DNA of 64,000 bases from assembly GCA_010356995.1 (NCBI GenBank), contig ML996698.1, forward strand, positions 431,923-495,922, written 5' to 3'. The DNA is from Trichodelitschia bisporula. Lineage: Eukaryota. Below are positions 59,846-63,940 of the stretch, one piece after another. Below the pieces are notes generated by a model. That model did not search any database, was not told the DNA's origin, and worked only from the letters and a program-made list of their open reading frames with translations. The position numbers and the translations under genes are program-made. The stretch's first letter is position 1. Each line of letters begins with the position of its first letter.

Positions 59846-61014
59846 CTATCTCTTCTTCGGATTGGCGCGAGGCTTGCATTCATCACCCTGGACCGGATGA
59901 AGCATGATTTTGTTCGGGTACGTTGGCGTATTGAAGGCGTAGCCCTTGGTCCAGTCGTAGCTCACCGCGTAGGCGAAGATGTTGCCCGTGCGGTTGAAGT
60001 CTGTCGCCGAGATGGTTCCCCCGACCTCCGGATATCCTTTAAGCCGATGCTTCGCGTCCTTGTCCCAGAAGTGGAAAGTTCCGTCGCTGCCGGCCGTGCT
60101 GAAGGTGCCATGGATGGGGTGGAAGGAGATGTCGTTCACGCTGTACACCTTGGCGATGTCTCGGTTGGACGTATCGTTCTGACGGTGGCACTTGAACGAG
60201 AAGTTTGATCTGATTGGGTTAGCTAAAGCCGTCGCATCAAGCATGATACCTACGCAGAATCCTTTTCCTCCACATACTGAATCGCGCAACGGCCTTCGAT
60301 GCTACCCACAGCAAAGCCTGACGCATCGATGAAGCAACTGACCACGCGAGTCTGCCATTTAAGGGGGCTCTGCATAGTTTTGTAAAATTTCAGGGGATCG
60401 TTTAGGTTCACCACGTTGAGGTAACGGTCCGCAGTGCCAACCACAAGGAGCTGGTCCCGGATGTCCATACTGTAGATACGGTCCTGGCACGGGAGTGTGC
60501 CAACAGGCTGTTGCTGCCGCAGATCCCAGTACTTGACAGTCTTGTCCCAAGATCCAGTAGCCAGCATCGGGGTGCCATTCATCGTGAACATCTTGACGCA
60601 CTTGATGGGCAGTTCATGCGCAGCGACCTGGGTGGGGGTGTTCGGATTGGCCTGCAAGTCGACCATCCGAGCGGCCTTGTCGGCGCCACCGCTCACAATC
60701 TTGGTGCCATCCTAGCGAGTTGTTAGTATCCCCTTACAAATGCGATGCGTCTATATACATACAGGCGACCAGGCTACGCTCAGAACGGGTCCTTCATGGG
60801 TGTACATGGCCTTGCCCTGGCTGTTGCCTGTGGCATCGATCTCGTAGATCCGGACCGCACTATCCCACGATGAGACCGCAAGAAGCTCTGCGGCGGACGA
60901 AAATGCAATGTCGGATATGGAGTCCTTGGGAGGTTCCTTGAGCTCGACGTCCTTGCTCAGGTCACCCTGGGTGGGGTTCGAGGACGAAGAGGCGGCGGAG
61001 AAAAGGCCGGCCAT
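59846..61014 (-). CDS. RAE1: WD40 mRNA export factor Rae1/Gle2; 3 exons
   Basis: PPKDSISDIAFS, SPLKWQTR, GSIEGRCAI, FKCHR and AYAVSYDWTKG. Introns 60762-60712 and 60253-60210. Confidence 0.96.
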
Positions 61015-61298
61015 CGTGGACGTTGTATGGCAAGTGGCGTCGGGGAGGATAAACGTTGGCTTGATGAAAGAGGTGTGAGGGTGGAGCGCAACGCCGAGTG
61101 TGGTGGTGGTGGATGTCTTGCGAATTGAGATATCGGTGAGCTTGTCCGGGCGCGTCTTCAAAGACAAGGCCTACTTGGCGCGTCTGTCGCGGGCCGAAGT
61201 AAAGCCGCTAGGCCTTGGCATGTGGCCCCAGCTCCCGCTAGCTTGGCAGATTTTGTTTAAAAACGTCGAGGCCAATTCTCGCTCTTCTTCTTTCCTAC

Positions 61299-61775
61299 AA
61301 CCCTCGCTCGAAGAATCGCATTCAAAGCTTTCACACAGAGTCGTGCTTTGGCATGTTCTCATTCACATATCGCTTTGGGAGAAAGTCCCCGGACATCCTG
61401 TCTTCGTGATGGGCATGCGGAAACGCGCCGCCACAGAAGCACTGCGGCTTACCTCGCCAGTCACCCTCCGCCCTCCCCGTCACTCCCATCGTCGCTTGTA
61501 CTCTCGGCTGCAACTAGCTCACGCATTACCTTTGCGAAGGAAGGTTCACGGATGAAGAAATGACTCCGCTTCTGGATACTGGTACATGGCCACGCCAGAA
61601 ACAGTCGGGAGGAGGCACTGGGATCCAGTGGCTTGGACGCGGGTCCAGGGCCTGTGCAGGATCCTTTCGTCGATTTTTATAGTTATGCGATTGTCTACTC
61701 GCGCTCTCTACCTCCGCAAGGAGAGGAGAGCTTCGCGTGGGTAACTCGATGGGGCTTATTCTCGATGCGAGGGTT
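61299..61775 (+). ncRNA. NME1: RNase MRP RNA (NME1 orthologue)
   Basis: CR-I GAAAGTCCCC (61381-90) pairs with CR-V ATGGGGCTTA (61749-58) to form P4. CR-IV ATAGTTAT at 61679-86; P8 hairpin GCGGAAACGC at 61417-26. P1 AACCCTCGC/GCGAGGGTT, P2 AATCGCAT/ATGCGATT, P3 CAAAGC..GCTTTG. Confidence 0.9.
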
Positions 61776-61844
61776 CACCATTTCAAGGTCTGCAGGATGT
61801 TTCACATGCCAATGCCTTTTCGCCGGGGCCAGATTTAACACAAC

Positions 61845-61935
61845 GTTCAAGTGATGAGGAACTGTTAGAGTCAAGCACTGAGAGCACCTTCACTGGGCTC
61901 TTGATGAATCATAACTACGACGGTATCTGATGAAC
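61845..61935 (+). ncRNA. Box C/D snoRNA with two guides (snR66-like D' guide, snR79-like D guide)
   Basis: Terminal stem GTTCA/TGAAC; C box GTGATGA 61851, D' CTGA 61878, C' TTGATGA 61901, D CTGA 61927. Guides TAGAGTCAAGC (vs LSU GCUUGACUCUA) and ACTACGACGGTAT (vs SSU AUACCGUCGUAGU). Confidence 0.9.
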
Positions 61936-62210
61936 ACTCAATCAAGATCTCTTGATGGCATTGGGGCTCCAGCAAGCTGCTGGCTAGTCTTCGCCTGACA
62001 AATATAGCCTACAATTCTACAAATCATTCTCCCCGGAGAACTCCTGCCGCACTGAGTGCATCGTAAATCCGTGAACGCATTCAATCCCCAAGCTACGCCG
62101 GAAACCAAGAAGCTAACAACAGCCAATTGCCAGCTCGACACCCGCTACGGTAAATACAATGGCTATCAATTCCAGCTCCCAAACGCCACCACCCCAGCCG
62201 ATAAACCGCA

Positions 62211-63940
62211 TCAGAAATCAGTCTTCAGCCTCTTGGCATCAGGTCCAGTTCCAGCTCCACCACCACCACCGTCATTTGTAGTGGCATTACTGACATCGGC
62301 GAGTGGCGCTCTGTTTTGCTGCATCTCCGGACCGCGCTTGACACCAATGGTTGGCGGGCGGTAAGCTGTCCGGTTGCCCATCGGGCTCTGAACCCCACCG
62401 CCAGGCAAGCCGATTCTGCGATTGGTGTCGGACTGCGGGTTTACGAAGTTCGGGTTGGGTCGGTTTGACGTAGTGGCTCCAGCAGGCCCGCTGGGACCGC
62501 TTGGGGGGTTCCCCGGATTGGCCGCCGTACCAAGTGCCGACCGGGTGATGGGGACAGACTTTCCGCCGTGCACCCCAGCAGTGCGCCGCAGGGATGGACT
62601 TTCAGCATGTGGATTGAAGGTAGGCACATTCGCAGGCAGGACATCACTCTTTTGAACTAGTTCAGCAGCCCGGCCCGCGACGAAGCCTATGGCCACGTTG
62701 GCCGTTGTAGGTCCCGCTCCGGCCACTATCGAAGGGCGCGGAGTCTGCGGAGTCTGTGGAGTCTGGTTCCCTTTGGTTCCTTCGGGCATTGAGACAGTAC
62801 GAGACTGTTGGTTGGGGTTGTGTTGCTGGGGCGGTTGTAGATTCCGTTGACCCTGTGGACGGTACTGCTGAGGGGTGTATTGTGGAGGGGGCATCTGACC
62901 AGCGGCGTTTGACCTGGGGTTGGCATTAGTCTGCCCGTTGGCAGATTGCTGTGGCTGCTGTGGATGCTGTCTTCCGGCGAATTGGTTTGGGGATTGAGCT
63001 TCCTGGCGCAGCTGAGGTAAAGACTGAATCCTCGGAAGCTGCTGTCGTGATTGGTTTTGCGGCTGTAACTGGGGCGGTGCGAGAAGGGCATCTAAAGCGG
63101 CTGTATCTGAATTGTTGGTTTCCAGATCCAGAAAATCGCTGCCATACTCGTCCTCATACTCCACCGTCTCCGACGTTGGATTGCTGGAAGGTTCCGTGAC
63201 CGCCTTTTCGGCGACTCCAGCAGGGATAGGAGGCTCGAGTCCAGCTTTCATGGAGGCTTCTTCGATAGGAAGGCTCTGTTTGGGTGGTATGAAATCAGGA
63301 TGTCGGTGAAGGTTGTCCTCATCCCATTTGGCCGGAAGTGTTTTCATCCTCGATACTTTAGACACATAGTCCTTGTCGTAGATGCAGTTTCCGAGAACGT
63401 TGCCGAAACTGCGCAGGGCCCGCTTGAGCGCATCTGTCGACGCTTCTTTTTTTATCTTTTCGAAAGCTTGCCCTTTGCCGGGCATGTTGGAAGTTTCACC
63501 GTATCCGATATCCTGTTCGAGTAAGCATCCATATCGCCGGAAAGATCCCCCGGGTACATACCTCGTGGTAGGTCCCATCCTTCAGGGTGACCCGTACAAT
63601 TGTGGAGCAACCCATGGAGACTTTGCCACTTTTGTCGATATCGACCTTGGTAGATTAGCATCGGGTAATCCGACAGCATTGTAGAACTAACATAGTCTAT
63701 GGTGACATTCTGTATGGCACTCGACCATCCGTTGAAACCAAACACCTCGTTCGCGATACCAATGACCTTCTCTGCAGCGACGTAGTGGAACGACTTGCCG
63801 CCAGGCCCTTTGCGCGATGATATGAACTCCGGACCTAGCTGGCGGTCGAGTTTGGCTTGTAAGGTGGCGATCTCCTCCGCTGTGTACTCCGACATGCGAG
63901 GGATGGGGGGGATGAACGGGTTGTGGATGTCGCCCGCCAT
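62211..63940 (-). CDS. RAD52: DNA recombination/repair protein Rad52 (5' end may extend beyond the window)
   Basis: LDRQLGPEFISSRKGPGG, ANEVFGFNGWSS and KKEASTDALKRALRSFGNVLGNCIYDK. Introns 63691-63646 and 63561-63513. A branch site plus acceptor near 63960-63973 suggests a further upstream exon. Confidence 0.95.

Follow-up and report, generated by a model that had tools for sequence, protein, structure and literature searches.

RNase MRP RNA is the catalytic RNA of an endonuclease of the nucleolus, which cleaves pre-rRNA at site A3. Small stable RNAs are in some cases made together, in units where one polymerase II (or III) precursor is resolved by cleavage in the spacer and by exonuclease trimming. 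The closest described counterpart of the locus reported here is found in Saccharomyces cerevisiae, where the annotation of chromosome XIV places the MRP RNA gene NME1 (YNCN0013W) and SNR66 (YNCN0014W) next to each other, as separate genes, between SSN8 and KSH1 (PMC9731477). According to the sources that touch on its transcription, NME1 is a polymerase II gene (PMC7277114; RNAPII ChIP preprint 10.1101/352906), and human RMRP is given as transcribed by polymerase III (PMC7277114). The snoRNA snR66 is cited as a known substrate of Rnt1p (PMC4334505, citing Lee et al. 2003) and is thus matured from a 5'-extended precursor. Methylation of Um2417 is assigned to snR66 and that of Cm1007 to snR79, both sites being listed as near-fully methylated in yeast (PMC5199042). 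In Neurospora crassa the snR66 homologue, Nc CD2 (EU780926), is reported to direct 26S-Um2379 from its D' side, and the snR79 homologue, Nc CD18, which is intronic, to direct 18S-Cm1004 from its D side; the same study describes guide elements as separating and recombining during fungal evolution (PMC2780460).

A full-text literature search, with most subscription papers outside its reach, returned no description of an MRP-snoRNA dicistron or of its conservation, and the papers on Trichophyton rubrum and Candida glabrata ncRNAs that it did reach mention RNase MRP in passing only. Here we analyse such a tandem on the plus strand of a 64-kb stretch of DNA, referred to throughout as the window, and compare it with its yeast and Neurospora counterparts and with related loci in metagenomes. 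The arrangement, as read from the sequence, is that of yeast NME1-SNR66, namely an MRP RNA gene and then an snR66 orthologue.

An RNase MRP RNA gene between RAE1 and RAD52

The pair lies within the interval 61015-62210, between two minus-strand genes (Table 1). On the upstream side lies a gene for a WD40 mRNA export factor of the RAE1/Gle2 type, the best solved relatives of which in a PDB sequence search are mRNA export factor Rae1 entries 7byf and 3mmy (E 1e-28); its ATG is at 61014, so that it runs divergently from the MRP gene. On the downstream side lies RAD52, in which the Pfam domain Rad52_Rad22 is matched on two exons (E 3e-22 and 6e-19) and the stop codon of which, at 62211-62213, makes it convergent with the MRP-snoRNA pair. 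Together the two genes contain four short (44-51 nt) GT..AG introns, typical of filamentous ascomycetes. A tRNA scan of the 64-kb window found 0 genes.

Within the interval, Rfam cmscan returned a full-length match to RNase_MRP (RF00030) at 61301-61772 (+), which covers positions 1-266 of the 266 of the model with 99.6 bits (E 1e-26) against a gathering score of 50, and which is the sole gathering-level Rfam match in the 64-kb window. The conserved regions CR-I (GAAAGUCCCCGGAC), CR-IV (AUAGUUAUGC) and CR-V (AUGGGGCUUAUUCU) are aligned with a posterior probability near 1, and the strands of P1 and P4 are also placed, in order, by the same alignment. The RNA is a plain member of RF00030.

Table 1. 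Features of the MRP-snoRNA locus and its neighbours, with positions in the window.
Feature	Position	Strand	Basis or remark
RAE1/Gle2-type WD40 mRNA export factor gene	59846-61014	-	PDB sequence search; WD40 by Pfam
RAE1 introns	60210-60253, 60711-60761	-	skipped in RNA contigs
TATA-like TTTAAAAA, candidate core promoter element	61256-61263	+	45 to 38 nt upstream of MRP 5' end
RNase MRP RNA gene (NME1/RMRP orthologue), 472 nt	61301-61772	+	Rfam RF00030
CR-I GAAAGTCCCCGGAC	61381-61394	+	cmscan alignment
P8-type hairpin	61417-61426	+	cmscan alignment
CR-IV ATAGTTATGC	61679-61688	+	cmscan alignment
CR-V ATGGGGCTTATTCT	61749-61762	+	cmscan alignment
Spacer, 72 nt	61773-61844	+	sequence, alignments, MFE folds
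Box C/D snoRNA, double guide, 91 nt	61845-61935	+	sequence, box pattern, guide comparison
snoRNA terminal stem GTTCA / TGAAC	61845-61849 / 61931-61935	+	sequence
C box gTGATGA	61851-61857	+	sequence
D' guide, snR66-type (25S-Um2417 equivalent)	61860-61877	+	comparison with Nc CD2
D' box CTGA	61878-61881	+	sequence
C' box TGATGA	61902-61907	+	sequence
D guide, snR79-type (18S-Cm1007 equivalent)	61910-61926	+	comparison with Nc CD18
D box CTGA	61927-61930	+	sequence
RAD52 gene	62211-63940	-	Pfam Rad52_Rad22
RAD52 introns	about 63512-63560, 63644-63689	-	skipped in RNA contigs

A box C/D snoRNA with two guides

Behind the MRP gene, on the same strand, stands a complete box C/D snoRNA, with all four boxes and a terminal stem. 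The window contains its C-D'-C' arrangement of boxes a single time, where shuffled sequence would give 0.02, and the 16-nt block formed by the D' guide and D' box likewise a single time, where 0.08 would be expected even with two mismatches allowed. Its targets were assigned by identity with the guides published for N. crassa (PMC2780460), as far as that study lists them, and not via the organism's own rRNA. On the D' side, the core UAGAGUCAAGC agrees with Nc CD2 in all 11 nt and in its register before the D' box (AAUAGAGUCAAGCU followed by CUGA in Nc CD2, GUUAGAGUCAAGCA followed by CUGA in the window). Since core and distance from D' are both the same, the box D+5 rule would select the same U, paired to A61873. 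The likeness to Nc CD2 extends to the UGAUGA form of the C and C' boxes and to the intergenic position of the gene, whereas the D-guide region of Nc CD2 (ending in UUGAAUACGAU) is without a match to the 18S site.

On the D side, in contrast to Nc CD2, the guide of the window snoRNA (ACUACGACGGUAU) agrees at 12 of 13 positions with the guide of Nc CD18 and Rfam snR79 (GACUACAACGGUAU followed by CUGA in Nc CD18, AACUACGACGGUAU followed by CUGA in the window). It thus has the ACUAC(G/A)ACGGUAU that stands directly before box D in snR79 and Nc CD18 (RF01184), while the rest of the snoRNA differs from snR79, the D' side of which is described as inactive in yeast and here carries the snR66 guide. 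An intact snR79-type D guide beside an snR66-type D' guide makes this a double-guide snoRNA. By guide and by position we identify it as the snR66 orthologue with an added snR79-type guide, and a single RNA would accordingly be predicted to cover the functions of both snR66 and snR79 of yeast. This differs from yeast, where the 18S-Cm1007 guide is carried by the separate snR79, and from N. crassa, where the separate Nc CD18 serves 18S-Cm1004, two snoRNAs being used in either organism.

The best snoRNA match in Rfam is snR79 (RF01184), which at 24.6 bits against a threshold of 55 (E 0.2) is sub-threshold and is aligned over the D guide and boxes only, and among the matches that Rfam gives for 61100-62200 with E up to 10 there is none to a family named snR66. 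A score below the curated thresholds is as expected for snoRNAs, which are short and evolve fast. The families snR79, snoZ199, snoR44_J54 and SNORD66 were considered as evidence of membership and set aside, all of their matches falling below threshold.

With the two RNAs compared in this way, we regard their identity, as an RNase MRP RNA and a C/D snoRNA, as practically certain. A preliminary description of this DNA had placed an MRP RNA in the seemingly empty gap between genes it took for RAE1 and RAD52, and had proposed a cmscan search against RNase_MRP as the check. The gap, its flanks (by Pfam and PDB sequence search) and the landmarks that it listed (CR-I, CR-IV, CR-V, P1, P4 and P8) all proved real in our searches, and the gathering-level match is the opposite of the missing covariance-model match that would have spoken against the proposal. 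It was likewise right that a complete C/D snoRNA follows about 70 nt later on the same strand (the spacer is 72 nt), that its D' guide has the snR66 target, as the core and register shared with Nc CD2 indicate, and that NME1 stands beside SNR66 in S. cerevisiae, as annotated (PMC9731477). What it overlooked is the snR79 guide, for 18S-Cm1007, on the D side of the snoRNA.

Conservation of the tandem in related loci

A metagenome scan with the CR-I 14-mer gave at least 118 loci, most of which are chance matches in GC-rich DNA; of those listed, 80 came with flanks of 1.5 kb and 38 with flanks of 300 nt. The context of all 118 listed loci was inspected, and twenty of them (17 with an MRP-like 5' context and 3 others) were scanned with Rfam, and the other 98 were screened by nhmmer profiles from our own alignments alone, which yielded nothing further in those 98. 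Among the matches listed, the RNase_MRP gathering score was reached by six loci (L029, L027, L023, L056, L077 and L047) and partial, sub-threshold MRP matches were found in three (L011, L044 and L099), giving MRP-like matches in 9 of the 118 listed loci (at least 118 in all). Four of these nine, again among the matches listed, have a full MRP together with at least 250 nt downstream. Long MRP genes of the fungal type are present in L023 (602 nt), L027 (465 nt) and L056 (437 nt), in which the CR-I, CR-IV and CR-V blocks are invariant in the alignment.

In all three fungal-type loci listed, the MRP gene has behind it, on the same strand, a C/D snoRNA that contains the block ATAGAGTCAAGCACTGA in identical form; the snoRNA profile finds no match in any other locus among the 118 listed, two of which, L077 and L047, reach no further than the MRP 3' end and are uninformative on this point. 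The spacer between the two genes is 72 nt in the window, about 85 nt in L023, about 104 nt in L056 and about 161 nt in L027, and that of yeast NME1-SNR66 is, we presume, about 160 nt. A common strand, a short spacer and an arrangement kept in relatives together make up the layout expected of a dicistronic unit. In yeast, too, the MRP gene is directly followed, on the same strand, by the 25S-Um2417 guide snoRNA, but its flanks, SSN8 and KSH1, differ from the RAE1 and RAD52 found here.

On the upstream side, tblastx detected a RAE1 homologue divergently placed in L027 and L056 (60-85% identity over pieces), and the contig of L023 ends 8 nt upstream of its MRP. RAE1 and the MRP gene thus share a short intergenic region in the window (59846-61300), in L027 (1331-2465) and in L056 (1-636), so that a protein gene and a gene for a non-coding RNA are locally linked in all three. 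On the downstream side, comparison of the DNA in L023, L027 and L056 found no RAD52 match. With downstream genes that differ among the loci, and with other flanks again in yeast, the pair stays together while its surroundings change. We therefore consider it highly likely that the tandem is conserved within Pezizomycotina-type relatives and yeast, on a small base of four related loci and one annotation.

The second guide is more variable. The window and L023 (CCUACGACGGUAU) have it intact, whereas L027 (GCGUUAUGGUAU), L056 (CUACAAUUGUAA) and Nc CD2 of N. crassa have it in decayed form; to judge from these sequences, one snoRNA lineage seems to have gained or lost a second guide.

Three other loci have features of their own. 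L029 (834-1107) carries a short MRP of 274 nt (135 bits) in AT-rich DNA, then a T5 run, and no snoRNA within its 257 nt downstream; it looks like a polymerase III-type gene of a non-fungal eukaryote. In L047 (208-1368) the RNase_MRP match spans 1161 nt with 50.8 bits, to the end of the contig, so that either the MRP RNA has very large insertions or the alignment is stretched. L044 passes from the 5' part of an MRP (1-181; model 22-189, 36.8 bits) into coding-like sequence, without CR-IV or CR-V, and may be a chimeric or transcript-derived contig.

Candidate promoter region, RNA-derived contigs and spacer

Upstream of the MRP gene stands the TATA-like sequence listed in Table 1, and in the alignment L027 (AGAAAAAC) and L056 (CTAAATAAC) have an A-rich or TATA-like element equally far from the MRP gene. 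In the four aligned spacers, by contrast with this upstream position, no common TATA-like or other promoter-like element was found. We also examined Logan contigs from two runs (X1 and X2) of one sample and one study, which are unstranded. These contigs skip the four GT..AG introns of RAE1 and RAD52 and therefore derive from RNA. In each run a single contig extends over the MRP body, the spacer and the snoRNA with no break or joint, and goes on into spliced RAD52. Being unstranded and joined to RAD52, the contigs may reflect antisense read-through of RAD52, so that a single transcript is not implied by them. The RAE1 contigs end at 61109 and 61134 and the bridging contigs at 61310 and 61382; neither these ends nor the uncovered stretch 61135-61309 are used as evidence.

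The word GTTCAC (61773-61778) directly follows the last base of MRP P1 in the window, L027 and L056, with GGATCAC in L023, and may be a signal for 3'-end formation of the MRP RNA. The same word recurs in the 5' arm of the snoRNA terminal stem in the window and L027, and not in L056. Taken as a whole, the spacer shows no better conservation than its flanks, a point against a single transcript: its mean pairwise identity of 0.30 compares with 0.30 for the downstream and 0.33 for the upstream flank, although 15 alignment columns are invariant in the spacer versus 3 in the 55 nt after the snoRNA.

In the predicted fold of the window spacer, the arms AGGTCTG (61786-61792) and CAGATTT (61830-61836) can pair around two small hairpins to give a three-way structure. 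Matching arms are present in L023, where they read GGATCTG / CAGGTTC and U-G replaces a U-A pair, as well as in L056, and are unclear in L027; the outer stem is part of the MFE fold in the window and L023 only. The RNAalifold energy of the spacer is -1.67 kcal/mol, and the single-sequence z-scores of the four spacers are +1.13 (window), -0.75, -0.48 and +0.15. The fold was rejected as evidence, its energies not being significant and no AGNN loop being present, and we keep it as a lead.

Discussion

Our findings place side by side an MRP RNA and an snR66-type snoRNA that we think are probably, if by no means surely, made as one transcript. The TATA-like box upstream of the MRP gene would, we infer, be the core promoter element of such a unit. 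RNA polymerase II would start about 40 nt downstream of it, at the MRP 5' end, would read through the 72-nt spacer and the snoRNA, and would end in the gap of about 275 nt before RAD52. The precursor would then be cut in the spacer, after which exonucleases would trim back to the protein-protected 3' end of the MRP RNA and forward to the snoRNP-protected 5' end of the snoRNA. By homology, the MRP RNA is predicted to assemble with proteins of the Pop1/Pop4/Rpp type and to cleave pre-rRNA at A3. The snoRNA would assemble with the box C/D proteins and, by the box D+5 rule, would direct 2'-O-methylation of the U equivalent to yeast 25S-U2417 from its D' guide, via A61873, and of the C equivalent to yeast 18S-C1007 from its D guide, via G61922. 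If co-transcribed, the pair would resemble the yeast polycistronic snoRNAs (snR190-U14, snR72-78) and the plant tRNA-snoRNA dicistrons in that small stable RNAs come from one precursor, but would differ from them in that the upstream partner is a 472-nt ribozyme RNA rather than an snoRNA or a tRNA. A further difference is that the spacer folds here contain no AGNN-capped hairpin of the Rnt1 type.

The two RNAs could instead be independent genes, the MRP with its own 3'-end or termination signal after 61772 and the snoRNA with a polymerase II promoter of its own that overlaps both the spacer and the MRP gene in its 3' portion, which we hold to be possible though on balance unlikely. There is precedent for such a layout in N. 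crassa, where nine intergenic C/D snoRNAs, Nc CD2 (marked 'IR') among them, are reported to have putative polymerase II promoters and to be seemingly independently transcribed (PMC2780460), and the annotation of yeast has NME1 and SNR66 as separate genes (PMC9731477). GTTCAC after the MRP 3' end in three of four loci could be an MRP-specific 3'-end signal, and an RNA contig cannot tell strand or transcript boundaries. Yet the genes in the window are no more than 72 nt apart, the four spacers have no promoter-like element in common, and the spacer is covered without a break by RNA-derived sequence. Orientation and short spacing are moreover kept in four of four fungal-type loci (the window and the three listed) despite differing downstream genes.

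A polymerase III transcript ending at a T run in the spacer, as for the polymerase III-transcribed RMRP of human (PMC7277114), with the snoRNA as a separate unit downstream, would be a second alternative. Short stretches of T are indeed found in the spacer, namely TTT (61781-61783) and TTTT (61817-61820), and L027 has a T5 in the first 20 nt behind its MRP. The window and L023, however, have only TTT close to the MRP 3' end, and in the window the MRP gene contains a T5 (61674-61678) but has no T run of such length or more behind it, which argues against polymerase III. As yeast NME1 is, in addition, given as polymerase II-transcribed (PMC7277114; 10.1101/352906) and the RNA contigs continue through the T runs, we regard polymerase III transcription here as very improbable. 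Just as improbable, in our estimate, is a host transcript, non-coding and spliced, that would have the MRP region for its upstream exon and would encode the snoRNA in an intron. Such a location is the rule in N. crassa, where 45 of 55 C/D snoRNAs, including Nc CD18 (snR79), are listed as intronic (PMC2780460). Against it, the RNA contigs are without a joint over 61310-62211 while all four neighbouring introns are seen, a weak point since contigs can drop rare forms, and inspection of the spacer by eye revealed no standard GTxxGT 5' splice site.

Transcription of the pair as one unit, which the preliminary description had proposed, is thus favoured by contigs that bridge the spacer, by the want of a shared promoter element in it when a TATA-like box stands before the MRP gene in the window, L027 and L056, and by the 5'-extended precursor from which yeast snR66 is matured, while the strand of those contigs and their continuation into RAD52 leave that part of the claim standing only in qualified form. 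Its description of the tandem as deeply conserved fared similarly, in that all three fungal-type loci listed and the yeast neighbours agree with it, on a base of four close-ish loci and one annotation. The further suggestion, that the tandem couples pre-rRNA cleavage with rRNA methylation, has nothing beyond adjacency behind it and is speculation; a shared promoter would give co-expression, and nothing ties A3 cleavage functionally to both methylations. A stronger version of the one-transcript reading, which we put forward tentatively and doubt more than we believe, is that of an obligate polymerase II dicistron that would already have existed when budding yeasts and filamentous ascomycetes parted and would have been kept since then, in which the MRP promoter would be the only promoter of the snoRNA and the spacer and snoRNP would provide the route to the MRP 3' end. 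It would explain why the pair persists while all flanking genes change.

What we report is for the most part ordinary annotation, and none of it overturns current understanding. It does place two essential or near-universal RNAs of ribosome biogenesis in a gap that ORF-based annotation had left empty, and it provides a clear case of guide shuffling in snoRNA evolution, with the snR66 and snR79 guides joined in one RNA in the window and in L023. If the two RNAs are co-transcribed, the tandem would represent a large ribozyme RNA and an snoRNA in one polymerase II unit across Ascomycota, and would offer a handle on how the 3' end of MRP RNA is formed in fungi.
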